A program made the translations under genes and the position numbers. DNA of 35,370 nt, from the IMG/VR virus record IMGVR_UViG_2778261227_000014. One strand, written 5' to 3'. A model generated the notes under the pieces. That model searched no databases. It worked only from the letters and a program-made list of their open reading frames with translations, and had not been told where the DNA came from. Below are positions 193 through 12,805 of this stretch, one piece after another. This DNA comes from a virus. Lineage: Duplodnaviria > Heunggongvirae > Uroviricota > Caudoviricetes. Positions within the stretch are counted from its first letter, which is position 1. Every line of letters begins with the position of its first letter.

Positions 193-741
193 TCATCCAA
201 CAAATTTAGCAACAAATACAGCAACCGCCGCCGTGAAAATGGTTGTGCATACTGGCACAATAATGCCACTCCAACGCCACTTCGTATTATCATCAACCTT
301 GTCAAACCGCCGATTCATCTCATCCATAATCTTGTCAAAGCGTTTATCCATCGCTTCGGTAATCTCACCCTTCAGGCTGTTAATGTCTGATTTGATCTGA
401 TCTTTCAGGTGAGCTGTATCAGATTTAAGCTCCCCTTTCAGATTCGCAATATCGCATTTAAGATCACCTTTCAGATGTGCTGTGTCTGCTTTGAGCTCAC
501 CTTTCACCTCACCAACATCGGCTTTGGTTGAAAGGTTTGTAGTGCGTTCAGCAAGCGTCGCAAGGTCGTTTCTTGTTAGCGATAAATCACCTTCGAGTCG
601 CTCAATTCGCCTTTCAAGTTTATCTGACATTCCACCTCCACTATTACCGCCTCCTCCACTGAAAGATGGGTCATCATCAAAAGAGTTGCTAATGCCATCA
701 CGAATGGGGGTTACGCCATGCCCGCTTTTAGCACACGCCAC
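193..741 (-). CDS. Coiled-coil protein with about 11-residue repeats (LKGELKxDxAH) and a C-terminal hydrophobic anchor; function unknown
   Basis: Six-frame ORF; GTG at 741 immediately follows the upstream stop; alternative ATG at 630 preceded by a GGAGG-like stretch (which also encodes a Gly-rich linker). Repeats LKGELKADTAH/LKGDLKCDIAN/LKGELKSDTAH/LKDQIKSDINS, C-terminal IIVPVCTTIFTAAVAVFVAKFVG. Confidence 0.5.
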   Translation of the reverse strand: MACAKSGHGVTPIRDGISNSFDDDPSFSGGGGNSGGGMSDKLERRIERLEGDLSLTRNDLATLAERTTNLSTKADVGEVKGELKADTAHLKGDLKCDIANLKGELKSDTAHLKDQIKSDINSLKGEITEAMDKRFDKIMDEMNRRFDKVDDNTKWRWSGIIVPVCTTIFTAAVAVFVAKFVG

Positions 742-3958: not shown

Positions 3959-4369
3959 ATGCACGCAAAAGAAGAAGGTATCATCAGAGCACTGAAAGAA
4001 ATTTCAAAGACAGAAAACGAAGTAGCGAAAAAAGCCGTGGCAAATGCACATATGGACGTCGCAACCCACACACTGATAGTCGCAAGAGTCACGGCAGAAG
4101 CAGCCGAAATTATCGCAAAACAGGATGCTGAACTGGCGGTTCTCAGAACACAACCAGTCACCGGACTGGATTTGTCTAACACCGGACGCCTTATTTACAC
4201 AATTGGCTCGGAGCTACAGCGATACACCATTATCGCCGGATTACAGGATAAATACCTGATCACTCCTCACCCCATAAGGGAATCAGAAATTCTGACAAAT
4301 CTCCGCCTGATAGAACGCTCTCAAGCTGTATTCATTGATGACGCGCAACGTGCCGTATTTAACGCATAG
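3959..4369 (+). CDS. Hypothetical early protein
   Basis: 136-aa ORF, GGAG 8 nt upstream of the ATG. Confidence 0.55.
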   Translation: MHAKEEGIIRALKEISKTENEVAKKAVANAHMDVATHTLIVARVTAEAAEIIAKQDAELAVLRTQPVTGLDLSNTGRLIYTIGSELQRYTIIAGLQDKYLITPHPIRESEILTNLRLIERSQAVFIDDAQRAVFNA

Positions 4370-4392
4370 GGTTACTGGACAAAGGGGGCGCA

Positions 4393-4596
4393 ATGGCAAT
4401 TAAGCATTTTCCCGTCGTTCGCTTTACCTCCAGAGGGCGCGAATACGAGGTCGACGAACGCCTGATTACCACTATCGACAAACATCGTTCGGAAAAGGAT
4501 GCACACCACATCTACCTCACTGACGGCACTTACTTCTGCGCCACCAACGTGGCGCGAGTAAATCTTATCCGACAGGTACAGGAGCCACGCAGATGA
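4393..4596 (+). CDS. Hypothetical early protein
   Basis: 67-aa ORF, AAGGGGG upstream of the ATG, stop overlaps the next start (ATGA). Confidence 0.5.
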   Translation: MAIKHFPVVRFTSRGREYEVDERLITTIDKHRSEKDAHHIYLTDGTYFCATNVARVNLIRQVQEPRR

Positions 4597-6453: not shown

Positions 6454-9276
6454 ATGACGGCAGAGTACATCAGGGACTGGCAACAACCGCGCCACGCAGT
6501 GGGGTGTGAAGGAACGGGGATCCCCGCTCCTGAATCCGCGCTTTCCTCCTGGCTGGATGCCTACCGGGCTGAGAACGAGCGCCGCCAGGAAATGGCTGAT
6601 GCGGCGTTCTCCGCCACACCGCTGGGCAACCTGATTAATAAAAGCCTGGACGCACAGGAAAAACAGGACAAAACCATCACACTGGCAGGAGACGCCAGAA
6701 AACAGGCACGCGGCGCGGTGGATGAAGCCATGGCCTCGCTGCGCCTGCTGCCGTCCTATCTGCGCGATCCGCTTATTCGCCACCTCTCCTTCCTGCGCAA
6801 AAAACAGGAAGCCGATCGCCGGAAAGGCAAAAAGAGCTGGCAGGCGGAACGCTATGCACGCGGACCCCTGCGCAAAATATTCGAACGTCTGGATAGCACT
6901 GACGGACGCTGGCTGACACCGGGTTATCGCTCCCTTGCCGGACGCGAACGCCTGGACGATTTGCTTTACCTGCCGCAGCTCAACAAACACCAGATACAGA
7001 CGCTGGCCACCATGACGGCGGCGATGTTCAGCAGCACCTTCGAAAAACTCTGCGATGGCTTTGGCGCGACCGATGGCGAGCTGACCATGGATGTAACCCT
7101 GAAGGCGTATCAGATGCTGGCCCGCATGGCGTTACACCTGCACGCCATGCCTCCACATTATGACGCACTGACGACAGACAAAGACCGGAGGAACGAACCG
7201 GACACGGAGCTGCTGCCGGGCGCAATCCTTCGCCTGACCTGTGCGGAATGGTGGAAACGCAAACTGTGGCTGTTACGTTGCGAGTGGAGAGAAGAACAAC
7301 TCCGCGCCGCCTGTCTGGTTTCCAGAAAAACATCACCCTATCTGAGCCAGGACGCGTTAAGCGAGTTTCGCGCACAGCGCGAGAAAACACGCGATTTCCT
7401 GAAAAGTTTCATGCTGGAAAATGAAGACGGGTTCACGATTGATCTCGAGACAGTGTATTACGCGGGAGTAAGTAACCCGGTTCACCGTAAGGCAGAAATG
7501 ATGGCCACCATGAAGGGGCTGGAACTTCTGGCCGAAGCCCGTGGCGACAAAGCGGTGTTTCTGACTGTCACCTGCCCGTCAAAATACCACGCCACAACAG
7601 AGAACGGTCATCCGAATCCCAAATGGAACGGGGCCACCATGCGCGACTCCAGCGATTACCTGGTTAACACGTTTTTTGCAGCGGTCCGCAAGAAACTGAA
7701 CCGCAACGGCCTGCGCTGGTATGGCATCCGCACGGTGGAGCCTCACCATGACGGCACCGTGCACTGGCATATGATGGTCTTTGCTCATCCGGAAGAAATC
7801 GACACCATTGTGTCCCACACCCGCGATATTGCCATTCAGGAAGATCGTCACGAGCTGGGTGATGATATTACCCCACGCTTTAAGGCAGAGTACGTCGACG
7901 GTTCGAAAGGTACGCCGACCAGCTACATCGCCACCTACATCGGAAAGAACCTGGACAGCCGCGCCGTGGGTGGCATTGACCCGAAAACAAGCAAGCCACG
8001 CGTTGATCACGAAACCGGAAAATCAATGGCCGAGAGCGTGGAACGCGCCATCGGCTGGGCGCGCCTTCACCGCGTCCGCCAGTTCCAGTTCTTTGGTATC
8101 CCCTCCCGTCAGGTATGGCGTGAACTCCGCCGCCTTGCCAGTCAGATGGCCCGCAACCCGGAAGGTCCACAACGTCTGGAAAATGACGCAATGGATGCGG
8201 TACTCGCTGCCGCTGATGCCGGGTGTTTTGCCACCTACATTGAGAAACAGGGTGGCGTACTTGTTCCACGCAAGGATTACCTGATTCGCACCGCCTACGA
8301 CCTCGCAGAAGAGCTGAACGATTACGGCGAGCAAAGCGTACAGATTTACGGGATCTGGTCGCCACAAATCGGGGAATCTTCCCGCGTGTGCACGCACCCG
8401 GATAACTGGAAGCTGGTAAGACGTAAACCGGAAGCGGAAGACAGCGCCCGCGAAAATGGTTTTGACCTTCAGGGCGGCCCTGCCGCCCCTTGGACTCGTG
8501 GCAATAACTGTCCCCGTGTACAGGAAACGGACAACAACGGGACAGAACAGCCGGAAGAACGGCCAGCACCGTGGCCGCAGCTCCCTGACGGCGTTGAAGT
8601 GAACGAATGGATGCGCTCACTGAAACGGCACGAACGCCGGGCGCTGATGCGTTCGCTTCGTGACAAACAGGCAAAAAACAGCAGTGATGAAATGCAGAGC
8701 TGGACACAGAGCCGCAAACAGCAGCGGCCTTTGCCTGATAACCACGAATTACTCGCTAAAGAATGGCGGGAGTCTGCTGAATCTCTCGGCCTGCATATCG
8801 GTGAACAGCAGATGCAGCACCTGTTACGGGGCGGCAGTCTGTACGTTGACGGCAGCATCATTGCACCGCAGGGATTTGAAATTGTACGCAAACCGGATAC
8901 CCGACCGGACAGCCGGATCACGCAGCTCTGGCAGCGCCTGAGCCGTAACCACGGCGTAAGCAGCACGGAGATCCGCCATAACCCGGTCGCCAGCTATCTG
9001 GAACAGCTGGGGGCATCAGACCCCGAAGCCGCCGCACGCCTGGCATCCACACTTCAGCAAGACCAGAACACCATGAAAACACCCGTTACCGTGCTTTCTG
9101 ACATGCTGCGCGCCATCCGCGACGCAGAGCACGCACAGAGAATCAGTGAAACCACTGAACGCGCCCGCCGCAAAGCAGACCTGCTGCGGGGTGGCCTGAC
9201 CATTGGAAACAAAAAACAGACAGAAACGGGATTCACAAATCCCGTAAATGAGCAAAAAACGCGCCGCGATATATGA
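6454..9276 (+). CDS. A: Rolling-circle replication initiator, P2 gpA-like endonuclease
   Basis: 940 aa. HUH-type metal motif GTVHWHMMVFAH and paired active-site tyrosines YIATYIGKN (Y-x3-Y), as in P2 A / phiX174 A-type initiators; position after the early genes. Overlapping - strand ORFs (7880-8707 and others) are treated as high-GC artefacts. Confidence 0.85.
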   Translation: MTAEYIRDWQQPRHAVGCEGTGIPAPESALSSWLDAYRAENERRQEMADAAFSATPLGNLINKSLDAQEKQDKTITLAGDARKQARGAVDEAMASLRLLPSYLRDPLIRHLSFLRKKQEADRRKGKKSWQAERYARGPLRKIFERLDSTDGRWLTPGYRSLAGRERLDDLLYLPQLNKHQIQTLATMTAAMFSSTFEKLCDGFGATDGELTMDVTLKAYQMLARMALHLHAMPPHYDALTTDKDRRNEPDTELLPGAILRLTCAEWWKRKLWLLRCEWREEQLRAACLVSRKTSPYLSQDALSEFRAQREKTRDFLKSFMLENEDGFTIDLETVYYAGVSNPVHRKAEMMATMKGLELLAEARGDKAVFLTVTCPSKYHATTENGHPNPKWNGATMRDSSDYLVNTFFAAVRKKLNRNGLRWYGIRTVEPHHDGTVHWHMMVFAHPEEIDTIVSHTRDIAIQEDRHELGDDITPRFKAEYVDGSKGTPTSYIATYIGKNLDSRAVGGIDPKTSKPRVDHETGKSMAESVERAIGWARLHRVRQFQFFGIPSRQVWRELRRLASQMARNPEGPQRLENDAMDAVLAAADAGCFATYIEKQGGVLVPRKDYLIRTAYDLAEELNDYGEQSVQIYGIWSPQIGESSRVCTHPDNWKLVRRKPEAEDSARENGFDLQGGPAAPWTRGNNCPRVQETDNNGTEQPEERPAPWPQLPDGVEVNEWMRSLKRHERRALMRSLRDKQAKNSSDEMQSWTQSRKQQRPLPDNHELLAKEWRESAESLGLHIGEQQMQHLLRGGSLYVDGSIIAPQGFEIVRKPDTRPDSRITQLWQRLSRNHGVSSTEIRHNPVASYLEQLGASDPEAAARLASTLQQDQNTMKTPVTVLSDMLRAIRDAEHAQRISETTERARRKADLLRGGLTIGNKKQTETGFTNPVNEQKTRRDI

Positions 9277-9322
9277 AGCGCGCATAAAACAGGCAAAAAC
9301 GGGATTTCAGAATCCCGTAAAC
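9224..9322. repeat. Two related 8-bp-arm palindromes flanking the A stop codon
   Basis: acgggatt-caca-aatcccgt within 9224-9248 and acgggatt-tcag-aatcccgt within 9297-9322; between them gcgccgcgatatatgaagcgcgc. Confidence 0.5.
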
Positions 9323-9352
9323 GATTAATTAATCAACATAAGGAAAAGCGAC

Positions 9353-10312
9353 ATGAAAATTTGTATCGATGACGGCTCCACCAACATCAAGCTGGCATGG
9401 ACTGAGAACGGCGAACGCCGCAACGCCATCAGCCCGAACAGCTTCAAGTCGGAATGGTCTGCGCCGTTCGGTGGCACGCAGCCCGCGAACTACATGCTTG
9501 ATGGCGTGCGCTATGGTTTTGATCCGGTCAGCGATCGCTTTGTCCAGACGACCGACACGCAATACCAGTACAGCGATGTGAATGTCATTGCCATTCATCA
9601 CGCGCTGGTCAAATCAGGCATCACACCACAGGAAGTGGATGTGGTTGTCACCCTGCCACTGAGCGAATATTTCGACACAAACGCACAGCCGGACATGGCC
9701 AACATCAACCGCAAAAAAGCAAACGTCATGCGTCCGGTGGCGTACCAGAACGGAAAAGCATTCACTATCCGTAACGTACGGGTTATGCCTGAATCCATTC
9801 CGGCTGGTTTTAAAGCACTGGCTGACATGAGTCCGTTTGAATCCCTGCTGATTGTGGATTTAGGCGGAACCACGCTGGATGTGGCAAAGGTTCAGGGACA
9901 ACTGGCGGGTATCAGCCAGGTGTTTTGCGATCCACACGTAGGCGTTTCCCTGATGGCCGATGCCGTACTGTCGGTGATGGCCACTAACGGTATGCGCACC
10001 AGTCACCACATCGCCAATACCATTATCGAACATCGCCATGATGAAGCCTGGCTGCGCCAGCACATCCACAATGACGCGCATTACGCCAGCCTGATGGCGG
10101 TTATTCGTGAAAAGGAAGAAACACTGAAACAACGCGTGATCCGCGCGCTGGCGGTTTTTTCGGGTTACGGGCGGGTGATGGTTGTCGGTGGCGGGGCGGA
10201 GATTGTGGCACCCGCTATCCGCGAAGCCTGCGGAGTTAATGCGACTTTCATCGCGGACGGGGTGCCACAATTTGCTCTGGTTAATGGGCTGTACGCAATG
10301 AACAAGGAGTAA
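9353..10312 (+). CDS. parM: ParM/StbA-like actin-type segregation ATPase
   Basis: 319 aa; N-terminal MKICIDDGSTNIKLAW closely matches plasmid R1 ParM (MLVFIDDGSTNIKLQW, from memory); further shared blocks YSDVNVIAIHHAL, VMPESIPAG, LLIVDLGGTTLD, GVSL, FSGY, VMVVGGGAEI, LVNGLY. AGGA RBS 8 nt upstream. Confidence 0.8.
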   Translation: MKICIDDGSTNIKLAWTENGERRNAISPNSFKSEWSAPFGGTQPANYMLDGVRYGFDPVSDRFVQTTDTQYQYSDVNVIAIHHALVKSGITPQEVDVVVTLPLSEYFDTNAQPDMANINRKKANVMRPVAYQNGKAFTIRNVRVMPESIPAGFKALADMSPFESLLIVDLGGTTLDVAKVQGQLAGISQVFCDPHVGVSLMADAVLSVMATNGMRTSHHIANTIIEHRHDEAWLRQHIHNDAHYASLMAVIREKEETLKQRVIRALAVFSGYGRVMVVGGGAEIVAPAIREACGVNATFIADGVPQFALVNGLYAMNKE

Positions 10313-10316
10313 ACCA

Positions 10317-10628
10317 ATGACGACACCAACCAGAAGAATAAGTTTCTATCTGAAGCCAGCTGCCGTCAAGAACGAAGGAGAAGCATGCGCCTGGCTGGAC
10401 AGCCTTACACCAGAAGCCCGCAAAAGCGGCCAACGCGTGGCTTTTCTGGCCGGGCTGGCACTTCTGAAGACGAATCCGGCAGAGGCTTACCGACTGGCCG
10501 CATGGGCTGATGATGAGATGTTACCTGTGACACAAATCAGCTCAAAAAAGTTTGAAGCACAGTCTGCACCAGTGGCTAAGATAACCAGCCAGATGGCTGG
10601 GAATATCCGGGCGTTATTTCCTGAGTAA
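10317..10628 (+). CDS. parR: ParR/StbB-like DNA-binding adaptor protein
   Basis: 103 aa directly downstream of the parM-like gene; ISFYLKP, AFLAGLALLKTNPAEAY and IRALFPE parallel R1 ParR (IAFKLNP, AALTAGLALYRQDP, LRSLFPKE, from memory); AGGAG RBS. Confidence 0.65.
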   Translation: MTTPTRRISFYLKPAAVKNEGEACAWLDSLTPEARKSGQRVAFLAGLALLKTNPAEAYRLAAWADDEMLPVTQISSKKFEAQSAPVAKITSQMAGNIRALFPE

Positions 10629-10642
10629 AAGCATCTGCGCGA

Positions 10643-10684
10643 AAAATGCTCACGTTTATAGAGAAAATGCTCACGTTTATAGAG
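10643..10684. repeat. Perfect tandem duplication of a 21-bp unit just downstream of the parR-like gene
   Basis: aaaatgctcacgtttatagag at 10643-10663 repeated at 10664-10684. Confidence 0.7.
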
Positions 10685-10777
10685 ACAGTATCATTCCATT
10701 TGGCACACTTACTTCAATAATCGATCTGTTAAACAAATAGATTGTCTATTATCTATCGATTAAAACGATCAATTATC

Positions 10778-10806
10778 TTGACAGTAATGTGCCTTTTTGT
10801 AAGATC
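10778..10806 (+). promoter_or_regulatory. Candidate sigma70 promoter
   Basis: Perfect TTGACA at 10778-10783, 16-17 bp spacer, TAAGAT at 10800-10805; points toward the 11014 gene. Confidence 0.4.
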
Positions 10807-10856
10807 GTTCGCATTGTGAGCGACAAGATAATTGCGCGGCATTGTCCATGCAAAAC

Positions 10857-10882
10857 GCCCCAATAGCAGCAACTATTGGGGC
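10857..10882 (+). other. 10-bp-stem hairpin (possible 5'UTR structure or binding site)
   Basis: gccccaatag-cagcaa-ctattggggc, perfect inverted repeat. Confidence 0.4.
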
Positions 10883-11013
10883 GTAAAACTCGGTCGGACT
10901 CACTTAACCTGATATGCGTGCCTTCCGAAGTAAATCAAAATGTGCGTCGTATATTTTATTGCTTACACGCACCTCTGTAAAGGCACGCATATTTTTCCTA
11001 TGAGGTAAATAAA

Positions 11014-11283
11014 GTGCGGGCTAAAACAGGTATTTGCAAGAACCCTCATCGTTATAATCCAACATTTCTGTCTCTCCCTGAATATCAAGGACAAGAAGGT
11101 CGGCACAAATGCGCTGCCTGTGCTTTTGAGCTAGGCATAAAAGATGCGCTTGAAGGACGCGCTATGGCTCAGAATGATTTAGTTTTAGCTAACATTCCGT
11201 TTAGCCAGGCTGGAACTGTAAGGCACAGAGATGCCTATGAAGCATATGTTCGTGGTTGGCGATTAATACACAGCAACAATTGA
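11014..11283 (+). CDS. Small hypothetical protein with Cys/His cluster
   Basis: 89 aa from GTG at 11014 with GAGG 8 nt upstream; CKNPHRYNP...HKCAACAF; flanked by its own promoter-like region and a downstream terminator. Confidence 0.45.
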   Translation: MRAKTGICKNPHRYNPTFLSLPEYQGQEGRHKCAACAFELGIKDALEGRAMAQNDLVLANIPFSQAGTVRHRDAYEAYVRGWRLIHSNN

Positions 11284-11291
11284 TACTTTTG

Positions 11292-11316
11292 AAGCGCCGA
11301 TAAGGCGCTTTTTTTG
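11292..11316 (+). terminator. Rho-independent terminator
   Basis: agcgcc-gataa-ggcgct hairpin followed by T7 directly after the 11283 stop. Confidence 0.7.
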
Positions 11317-11707
11317 TTTGCACGATAGTGCACAAGTTTGCACAATTTTTTTGAACGACTTTTTGTACTTCCGGCCCGCGTGGTGGCTGGATCCGTCAAG
11401 GATCCGTACGTGCACAAAAAAACGCGTTTTTTCTGCGCGCAGGTGACGGGGGAACAGCCCGCGTTTCAGGGGGTAAATAGCATTCCCTGAACGATGTCGC
11501 AGAGATACAACAGAATGGCTGTATTTCTCACGCTGAGCGTGAAAAAGACGTGAGGGCTTTTGATTTAGGTAAGGCCGTCAAAATCGCACTGAGACGGCGA
11601 GAACATGCAGTCAACGCGGTGGGATTGCGTAAGAGTCTGACTGTCGATGATGGCAATCAGCAGAAAAGCATCGTGAAATTATCTGACTGATACAGGAGCT
11701 GGAGAGT

Positions 11708-11732
11708 CGGGGCATAAATTTTTTATGCCCCG
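11708..11732. other. Hairpin adjacent to the portal gene stop
   Basis: cggggcata-aattttt-tatgccccg at 11708-11732, 27 bp beyond the Q stop; no clean T-run on either side. Confidence 0.35.
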
Positions 11733-11758
11733 GCGAAGCAGCAGACAAGCGAAGCGCG

Positions 11759-12805
11759 TCAGGATGTGGGCTGGGTGTCTAACAGTGCGTAAGGGTTAAA
11801 GCGGATCACCTCTTCGCCAAGCCAGTCATTGATGTGCTTCATGGCCTCCATGACAGGCATCAGCTCGTTAATTGCGTAAACCCGCGCGGCCTTCTCCACA
11901 TCGCCAAACGCACTTTTTTCGCCCGGCATCGCCCCCATCAGTTGCGGCGGAACGCGGTGCGCAGCCAGCACATCATCACGGGATGCCGCCTTAACATTCA
12001 TGAACTCATCCTTTGCGGTGATCTGCTGGAACGGCAAAATTTGCACCCCCTCTTTGCCCCCGTTGGGCGCATGAATGAGCACGTTTTTAAATGCACCACC
12101 ACCACGCGCACCCTGTAGCGTTTCCTTCAGGGAGTCCATGCTTTCGCGGTTTACCTGCGCTGCACCGATGTAGATGATGCACCCGGCGTGGGAGCCGTTG
12201 TCGTAATACAGTTTTCTGAACATGTCCGCCGAATGAGACAGGCTGGCCGAGAGTAATGCGCCGAGATATTCCGGCATGCCGTAGATTTCCTGGTTAATGT
12301 CAGGATTCATCAGGTGGCACACTTTGCCAGGGCGAAACTGAAACGCGTCCTTGCCATCCTGCACATACCACCATGATTCAAGATCGCTTCCGCGTCGCAT
12401 GTATTTCGCCAGGGCGTGCCGTAATTTAAGTGGTTCGCCGAGCATATTGCTTCGAAGCTCAAGGAATGCGTTACCGAACACAAACCAGTCCAGCGCCAGC
12501 GCCGAGAAATCCTGCCGGGAAAGCAGCGGATGCGGAATATAGCAGCCGAGCAATACATTACGCTTAAAGTAAAGCGCAGACTGATGCCAGGACGTTTGCC
12601 GGGCAGCTCTTGCCAGACCGTACCAGTCCACCGGGGTTTCATACCACCGACCGTTATCAGCACAGTACATATTGTCCAGCAGGTCATGCCCGGTCAGGCG
12701 GTAAGGACCATCAAATGTGAATGCACTGAGCGACGATTCTTTCCTGAGCGCATCAGCGAGATCAATGCGTGAACTCATGCGCACTTTTTTATTTTTTCTG
12801 CTCAT
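11759..12805 (-). CDS. Q: Portal protein, P2 gpQ-like
   Basis: 348 aa, ATG at 12805 overlapping the P stop (ATGA); size and position match P2 Q, leftward and adjacent to terminase. Confidence 0.85.
   Translation of the reverse strand: MSRKNKKVRMSSRIDLADALRKESSLSAFTFDGPYRLTGHDLLDNMYCADNGRWYETPVDWYGLARAARQTSWHQSALYFKRNVLLGCYIPHPLLSRQDFSALALDWFVFGNAFLELRSNMLGEPLKLRHALAKYMRRGSDLESWWYVQDGKDAFQFRPGKVCHLMNPDINQEIYGMPEYLGALLSASLSHSADMFRKLYYDNGSHAGCIIYIGAAQVNRESMDSLKETLQGARGGGAFKNVLIHAPNGGKEGVQILPFQQITAKDEFMNVKAASRDDVLAAHRVPPQLMGAMPGEKSAFGDVEKAARVYAINELMPVMEAMKHINDWLGEEVIRFNPYALLDTQPTS

Follow-up and report, generated by a model that had tools for sequence, protein, structure and literature searches.

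A repeat-rich interval behind the partition genes of a P2-like prophage is probably for the most part the antisense-controlled leader of a mobile gene cassette

The Locus and Its Setting

The subject of this report is a repeat-rich interval, 10629-11013, in a viral DNA of 35,370 nucleotides (nt) (IMG/VR record IMGVR_UViG_2778261227_000014; "the window" below is the whole of this stretch), which is a P2-like prophage belonging to the P88-like genus Xuanwuvirus (Peduoviridae). The interval lies between the partition gene parR and a gene for a protein of 89 amino acids (aa), here called orf89, and an earlier note had offered two readings of it: in the first place a second, parC-like centromere located after the par genes, a binding site for the ParR-like protein, and otherwise the regulatory leader of the next gene. 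The interval consists of two unrelated parts, a spacer (10629-10703) and the control region of a gene cassette (10704-11013); we consider it likely that the latter is an antisense-controlled leader, and that the centromere of the partition system corresponds to palindromes located upstream of parM.

The surrounding genes place the interval in the cargo hotspot of P2-like phages, with replication and partition genes on one side and the portal gene on the other. A replication endonuclease gene (6454-9276) is followed by parM (9353-10312, plus strand; Pfam StbA_N, 6.9e-82, and ParM, 6.2e-69) and by parR, or stbB (10317-10628, plus strand; Pfam Plasmid_stab_B, 9.8e-24), both of which are classed by PHROG as partition proteins and which together form a type II partition operon (9353-10628, plus strand). 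Beyond the interval, orf89 runs on the plus strand from a GTG at 11014 to a stop codon ending at 11283; it is preceded by a Shine-Dalgarno sequence, GAGG (11002-11005), and its product belongs to PHROG 3941, of unknown function. A Rho-independent terminator at 11291-11311 (plus strand; 8-base-pair (bp) stem with 5 GC pairs, T-run) closes the cassette, and the portal and terminase genes, on the minus strand, come after about 450 nt of non-coding DNA 3' of it. This non-coding spacer, the expected place of a P2-type cos site, contains two copies of GGATCCGT at an 11-nt distance (11387-11408). The GC content falls to 0.31 at 10650-10799, compared with 0.5-0.6 in the flanking genes. According to Rousset et al. 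(2022, PMC9122126), a putative partition system occupies this hotspot in about one in four P2-like phages.

The stretch 10600-11350 is 96% identical to Escherichia phage 520873, and the region is present in 166-173 of 5426 complete E. coli genomes, in every case on the chromosome; no match to it was found when the DNA of 72,556 plasmid records was searched. In strain CH4793 (NZ_CM166350.1) an IS1-family element is inserted in the equivalent of 10600-11350, which there aligns in three pieces over 1507 bp.

A Junction Spacer Followed by a Mobile Cassette

The left part of the interval, from the parR stop codon to the cassette (10629-10703), is an unstructured junction spacer, unrelated to the DNA found at this place in other parMR phages. 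Folding of 10615-10715 was no better than chance (z = +1.5), and homology with divergent P2-type relatives of the cassette (L007, L008 and L042-L046) starts only at about 10704. The perfect 21-bp tandem duplication described in the earlier note is indeed there, on the plus strand at 10643-10684, the repeat search returning AAAATGCTCACGTTTATAGAG at 10643-10663 and 10664-10684 (2 matches against 0.00 expected). Its junction is found in a single IMG/VR contig out of 2.9 million, compared with 23 contigs that carry the single-copy junction, and the E. coli genomes listed all align over 364, 730 or 60 nt, where the duplication would give 385, 751 or 81 nt, and are thus single-copy. From these comparisons the duplication appears to be a recent, strain-specific slippage event and a rare polymorphism. 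The spacer as a whole is filler at the left edge of a variable cargo hotspot, with no detectable role.

From about 10704 onward lies the 5' control region of a cassette that is self-contained, moves horizontally and encodes the 89-aa protein. The P2-type relatives named above share about 75% identity with the window over the palindromes, promoter and hairpin discussed below, and encode an unannotated homologue of the protein. In L007 and L008 this homologue has 92 aa (4281-4559 and 4269-4547, respectively), both left without annotation in RefSeq; in phage 503458 it is apparently truncated, only residues 15-63 being alignable. A scan of viral contigs for orf89 homologues gave 80 loci, and no ParM or ParR was encoded in more than 40 non-redundant ones, for which 2.5 kb of flank was fetched. 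The homologue lies beside lysis genes in a Providencia prophage (L003, 2989-3267) and directly after a cI-type (Peptidase_S24) repressor gene in Salmonella (L126/L127, 4001-4276) and Frischella (L128-L130, 4001-4246) prophages, the latter slot being that of rexAB in lambda. Slots after the repressor or beside the lysis genes are typical for exclusion and defence genes expressed in the lysogen. Upstream terminators delimit the cassette in several families, and its layout is common to most of the loci without parMR, all of enterobacterial type, even though DNA similarity between the clades has been lost. Two lambdoid-type cassettes (L052 and L068) had no match among the 5426 E. coli genomes; only 6 of 50,697 phage records encode an orf89 homologue, each annotated one being called hypothetical, and full-text searches of the literature for the cassette, its protein accessions or PHROG 3941 gave no description of it, the one pertinent statement being the general one on partition systems cited above.

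A Predicted Antisense RNA Within the Leader

Within the leader of orf89, on the opposite strand, as in cis-encoded antisense control, lies a promoter-like site that the earlier note had overlooked (10953-10981, minus strand), composed of a -35 hexamer TTTACA (10981 to 10976), a 17-nt spacer and a -10 hexamer TAAAAT (10958 to 10953), with 10 of 12 consensus matches. The corresponding plus-strand motif TGTAAA, mostly TGTAAAG, is invariant and, in nearly all cassettes of enterobacterial type, precedes the start codon by 34-41 nt, a range that leaves out two loci in which the start codon was mis-assigned by the script. The spacer is 17 nt long in every family except L088 (18 nt), while its sequence diverges, and the -10 hexamer takes the forms TAAAAT, TACGAT, TAGACT, TAATCT, TAGTCT, TAGTAT and TACAAT, which conform to TAnnnT; CACAAT occurs only in the family of L081 and L084.

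Downstream of this site in the minus-strand direction is the GC-rich hairpin that the earlier note had described as a 10-bp stem at 10857-10882, and which proves to be the core of a perfect 12-bp stem (10855-10866 paired with 10873-10884). It had escaped notice that the hairpin is followed by a T-run (GGGGCGTTTTGC) on the minus strand only, the plus strand reading GTAAAAC, so that the hairpin with its UUUU tail is predicted to be the terminator of an antisense RNA; on the sense messenger RNA (mRNA) the same sequence is modelled as a stable leader stem-loop. Equivalent GC-rich hairpins of 11-14 bp are found about 70-140 nt downstream of the antisense promoter across families, with flanks that are T-rich on the minus strand and A-rich on the plus strand. 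The stems change in sequence with pairing kept (CAATAG/CTATTG, CAGAAGG/CCTTCTG, CTGATAG/CTATCAG, CGTGAAA/TTTCACG, CGAGTTG/CAACTCG); RNAalifold recovers the hairpin, with both-sided compensatory changes in 8 of 10 pairs. Of 26 distinct hairpins, 18 are more stable when read on the minus strand (Wilcoxon p = 0.02), and most of the G-U pairs are found in that reading. In L081, L084 and L088 the tail is a canonical run of six to seven T, and a standard scan finds in L081 the minus promoter together with a minus terminator of canonical type; in the window it calls both promoters.

Promoter and terminator together predict a cis-antisense RNA of about 100 nt (10850-10947, minus strand) with a fold z-score of -3.4. 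For longer stretches the values are -6.7 (minus strand, 10845-11000) and -4.5 (plus strand, 10810-11030). When a covariance model built from lambdoid-type cassettes only was run on both strands of the window, its top hit was 10847-10981 on the minus strand, over the full length of the model. Searches of 9000-12000 against Rfam reached at best 22.1 bits with a threshold of 45, the match being confined to the hairpin (sub-threshold sar, ctRNA_pGA1 and Spot 42), and no hit at gathering level was obtained in 12 related loci. A conserved sense/antisense control element, with neither an Rfam family nor a RefSeq annotation, seems to precede the gene for a protein whose family numbers more than 1300 members.

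The Sense Promoter, Its GATC Sites and the Leader Structure

The TTGACA -35 element with a plausible -10 mentioned in the earlier note was located as TTGACA-16-TAAGAT (10778-10805, plus strand), with a predicted start at about 10812 and a leader of about 200 nt, so that the second reading of that note, a regulatory leader, appears to hold in the refined form of a structured leader under antisense control. Counted from the start codon, the sense -35 falls between -204 and -236 in most families, four divergent ones having it further upstream, as far as -269; the hexamers are TTGACA, TTGATC, TTGAAG or TTGAGG for the -35 and TAAGAT, TAGGAT, TATAAT or TATTAT for the -10, and the standard scan also calls the sense promoter in L068.

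Upstream of the promoter there are nested palindromes (10718-10762), with an outer inverted repeat TAATCGAT (10718-10725) / ATCGATTA (10755-10762) and an inner palindrome AATAGAttgTCTATT (10736-10750), which look operator-like. The ATCGAT palindromes of the earlier note are part of this structure: they do exist, although the "several" of the note amount to two ATCGAT sites, 10720-10725 and 10755-10760, both belonging to the outer repeat. An 11-nt perfect inverted repeat, CAATTATCTTG/CAAGATAATTG (10770-10780 / 10824-10834), brackets the sense promoter; by eye it is not kept in L043-type relatives, and it was set aside as a functional element, being unexplained or due to chance.

Three GATC (Dam) sites, 10723-10726, 10767-10770 and 10803-10806, fall within 84 nt (10723-10806) around the sense promoter, the second 7 nt before the -35 and the third overlapping the -10. 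Windows of 90 nt with at least three GATC sites occur at only two places in the 35 kb, this cluster being one of them (Poisson P of about 0.002). The other one (376-480) is in a repeat-rich coding stretch (open reading frame 193-741, minus strand). Across the families, 141 GATC sites were counted in the 260 nt upstream, where 38 were expected (3.7-fold), which makes GATC the commonest 4-bp palindrome there, and a GATC 7-8 nt before the sense -35 recurs in most families. Dam-dependent control of the sense promoter is therefore plausible as judged from site content and position. A binding site for integration host factor (IHF) at the conserved GATC-N7-TTGA was considered and rejected, since by eye the consensus fits one family only.

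Toward the start codon the leader forms a long stem-loop (10912-10992, plus strand) that contains the antisense promoter. The inverted repeats reported earlier at 10914-10924 and 10980-10990 belong to it and extend somewhat further, the outer stem being perfect over 13 nt (10912-10924 / 10980-10992), with an inner GTGCGT/ACGCAC stem. The long stem stops 10 nt short of the Shine-Dalgarno sequence; at its base, AGGU is paired with ACCU in the minimum-free-energy fold. In L003 and L068 stem-loops of different sequence likewise span the antisense promoter, as judged by eye. Of 26 families, 20 have a hairpin immediately ahead of the start codon whose 3' arm includes the Shine-Dalgarno sequence (z below -1.5), with arm sequences that differ between families.

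The orf89 Protein and GATC Methylation

A single-sequence query with orf89 found only 2 homologues, so that a profile search was needed; it gave 1354, none with a Pfam domain. Residues C8, H12, Q25, R30, H31, C33, C36, A37, S64, Q65, A66, R70 and H71 are invariant, and the AlphaFold2 model is mostly helical and of good confidence, with a predicted local distance difference test score (pLDDT) of 86.5. There was no match of orf89 in Pfam, NCBIfam or PADLOC and no structural neighbour in a fold search. The model and the invariant residues suggest that the product is probably a soluble zinc-binding protein.

Five independent loci of Bacteroidota have the order Dam-like methyltransferase, DpnII-family endonuclease, orf89 homologue and N6_N4 methyltransferase, which identifies the setting as a GATC-specific restriction-modification operon; homologues inside such DpnII-type operons are those of L113-L118 (in L113 the gene is at 4001-4264), L119 (4001-4267) and L004-L006. 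In two viral contigs (L085 and L087) a Dam-like methyltransferase gene lies next to the homologue. Since homologues are embedded in GATC restriction-modification operons and the prophage promoters are rich in GATC, a link of orf89 function to GATC methylation is suggested, as a lead and not as a result, and one that can be tested for a common cargo gene of a defence hotspot. A broader proposal, which we put forward tentatively and regard as open to considerable doubt, is that this is an undescribed, widespread cassette pairing a protein of about 90 aa tied to GATC methylation with a cis-antisense RNA, and acting as a methylation-sensing exclusion, anti-restriction or addiction module. If so, expression in prophages of Dam-positive Enterobacterales and Orbales would follow the methylation or replication state of the DNA, as at induction, superinfection or entry into a new host.

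Proposed Mechanism and Its Alternatives

The mechanism that we favour for 10704-11013 is as follows. The sigma-70 promoter at 10778-10805, amid the GATC sites and behind the palindromes, would produce an mRNA from about 10812 with a structured leader of about 200 nt. The convergent minus promoter (10981 to 10953) would fire from about 10947 and yield an RNA of about 100 nt that ends at the GC hairpin (10884 to 10855) plus UUUU, at about 10850, and is perfectly complementary to the middle of the leader. In the lysogen, this antisense RNA and head-on transcription from the two promoters would keep orf89 low, the RNA repressing through duplex formation, cleavage or refolding of the leader, and the methylation state of the promoter GATC sites would plausibly be a second input. 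The element is probably new, although of a known kind of antisense control, and its antisense RNA has probably not been described before.

Several observations weigh against this reading. Promoter-like sites in 9100-11900 number 2, with 2.8 expected from shuffled sequence, and are thus not above chance, so that the two promoters draw their support from comparison with other loci and not from the scan. The covariance-model hit is marginal (E = 0.086, with rough calibration). In the largest cassette clade the antisense -10, TAATCT, matches at only 3 of 6 positions and the standard scan does not pick up the antisense terminator because of its weak tail; the U-tail of the window version has only 4 U. 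The predicted antisense RNA (10947-10850) covers neither the Shine-Dalgarno sequence (11002-11005) nor the start codon (11014), and the ribosome-binding-site hairpin is absent from the window version (z = 0.0); as this hairpin is clear in 20 of 26 families, part of the mechanism differs between clades. The 10718-10762 palindromes are conserved only in the parMR-linked P2-type clade and are missing in lambdoid-type cassettes, and ParR or another phage protein might conceivably bind them.

An alternative, which we find rather unlikely, is that the cassette resembles a type I toxin-antitoxin system, orf89 being toxic and the antisense RNA an antitoxin that prevents its synthesis. Such a reading would account for control that is layered and tight (convergent antisense promoter, structured leader and, in most families, sequestration of the ribosome-binding site) and for a solitary, mobile, terminator-bounded cassette in the exclusion and defence positions of prophages, namely the P2 hotspot, the place after a cI-type repressor and that beside the lysis genes. 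The protein, however, is soluble, helical and 89 aa long, with a Cys/His motif, and not a short hydrophobic peptide; the antisense RNA lies off the ribosome-binding site; and small open reading frames in the leader of the window include none conserved across families, so that a mok-type leader frame is lacking. The Bacteroidota homologue stands unregulated inside restriction-modification operons, which argues against intrinsic toxicity, and PADLOC gave no hit.

The minus-strand RNA might also be mainly a trans-acting small RNA of the prophage, its overlap with the orf89 leader being incidental. Its shape, with U-rich stretches on either side of a strong terminator hairpin and a length of about 70-100 nt, would suit a free-standing small RNA, but the body of the RNA, outside the geometry of promoter and hairpin, is not conserved between clades, which fits complementarity in cis better than a seed acting in trans, and the antisense element always occurs with orf89, at a fixed distance. 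We regard this explanation as improbable.

Less credit still is due to the view that the interval has no dedicated function, the hairpin terminating neighbouring transcription and the other repeats being chance features of AT-rich acquired DNA. The chance-level count of the promoter scan and the unstructured, non-conserved left 75 nt would agree with it; against this, the hairpin has no T-run on the plus strand and therefore cannot terminate parMR transcription, the architecture is kept across cassettes that have diverged beyond DNA alignment, and fold z-scores reach -6.7.

The Centromere of the parMR System

In favour of a ParR-bound centromere in the interval, the latter lies directly 3' of parR, is AT-rich and contains a perfect direct repeat and several palindromes; the palindromic block at 10718-10762 is kept in relatives that also carry parMR, and so is the N-terminal, presumably DNA-binding, domain of their ParR. 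The evidence on the other side leaves this reading hardly any probability: of 24 IMG/VR relatives, 23 have only one copy of the 21-bp repeat, as do all E. coli genomes listed; the interval has no phased iteron array, the 2 x 21 bp being its sole direct repeat; it contains no copy of the parM-upstream palindrome described below, with up to 3 mismatches allowed; it is located downstream of parR and not upstream of parM with overlap of the par promoter; the cassette of which its structured half is part occurs in more than 40 loci that have no parMR in the flank fetched; and P88, Shae_phiSM and Chuche retain parMR and the upstream palindromes while the whole downstream region is missing.

In these last three phages ParR is 83-85% identical and the region upstream of parM 98% identical to the window, but from the parR stop codon on the DNA is unrelated and different genes come next, which places the end of the par locus at that stop codon. 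Other relatives diverge earlier. In L007 (3556-3870), L008 (3644-3958) and L042-L046, ParM is 97-99% identical and ParR only 48-56%, the divergence affecting the C-terminal half alone, save its last residues (NI..FPE); among relatives with a ParR of about 52% identity the upstream palindromes are kept at 97%, whereas no resemblance remains in the first 75-170 nt after parR. The hotspot apparently has its recombination boundary inside parR.

Directly upstream of parM, two 20-bp palindromes, ACGGGATT-N4-AATCCCGT, lie 73 bp apart (9226-9245 and 9299-9318), in a stretch reaching from the end of the replication gene into the promoter region of parM. These are 2 matches where 0.16 were expected, with none elsewhere in the window, and the palindrome region is 97-98% conserved in all parMR phages examined, including those with other downstream cargo, the palindromes themselves being kept strictly in every one. 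In known cases parC is an array of phased iterons that is situated upstream of parM and overlaps the par promoter. As the pair at 9226-9318 is positioned like parC in characterised type II systems, it is the better candidate, and it is most likely the centromere of parMR and probably its operator as well, to which ParR would bind. The candidate downstream of parR can accordingly be struck from the annotation, and the likely true site is indicated upstream of parM.

The placement of the centromere bears on the question of whether parMR-carrying P2-like prophages persist as plasmids. A 34,461-bp record deposited as a plasmid (NZ_CP148288.1), which is phage-sized and non-mobilizable, carries the ParR type of the window, and phages 520873 and 503458 each entered the databases as a replicon of its own from a sequenced strain (CP025923.1 and CP025874.1). 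The plasmid-type record and the separate-replicon deposits are consistent with episomal maintenance of some of these phages.

Comparison with Known Systems

With the R1-type ParMRC system the interval shares its position next to true parM and parR/StbB genes, its AT-richness and its repeats. In plasmid R1, where stbA/stbB correspond to parM/parR, parC is made of 10 iterons of 11 bp; the interval differs in being downstream, in having only a two-copy, strain-specific repeat and in being absent from sister phages with the same parMR.

As cargo, the cassette occupies the same slot between replication and portal genes as other prophage morons and hotspot systems (P2 old/tin, lambda rexAB, retrons and the P2 hotspot systems of PMC9122126). 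Like them it has its own promoter and terminator and a GC content below that of its neighbours, and its homologues are found in the rexAB slot after a cI-type repressor; it differs in matching no known defence family, so that a defence role is putative and suggested by analogy.

The type I pairs hok/sok, SymE/SymR and RalR/RalA resemble the cassette in the use of a cis-antisense RNA, predicted here, against the leader of a small mobile gene, and in the sequestration of the ribosome-binding site, seen here in most families. The cassette differs from them in having neither a conserved leader frame nor a hydrophobic toxin, and in that orf89 homologues occur in restriction-modification operons without such a leader.

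In IS10 the promoter pIN is Dam-sensitive, and RNA-IN and RNA-OUT overlap by 35 nt at the 5' end, including the start codon. The predicted arrangement of the cassette is similar in its GATC in or beside the sense -10, its convergent antisense promoter and the fold-back structure of its leader; here, however, the RNA would cover the middle of a 200-nt leader, over about 100 nt, and the cassette is not a transposon.

FinP/traJ of F-like plasmids offers a further parallel. The FinP RNA is transcribed from a promoter within the long structured leader of traJ, covers the traJ ribosome-binding site, needs FinO and is Dam-dependent in the Salmonella virulence plasmid. The antisense promoter of the cassette, in contrast, lies about 35 nt upstream of the start codon and would fire away from it, leaving the ribosome-binding site uncovered, and the cassette has no sequence or Rfam similarity to FinP/traJ and an unrelated gene product. 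What the two are predicted to have in common is an antisense RNA of less than about 100 nt set in a structured leader, a hairpin terminator and GATC sites near the sense promoter.

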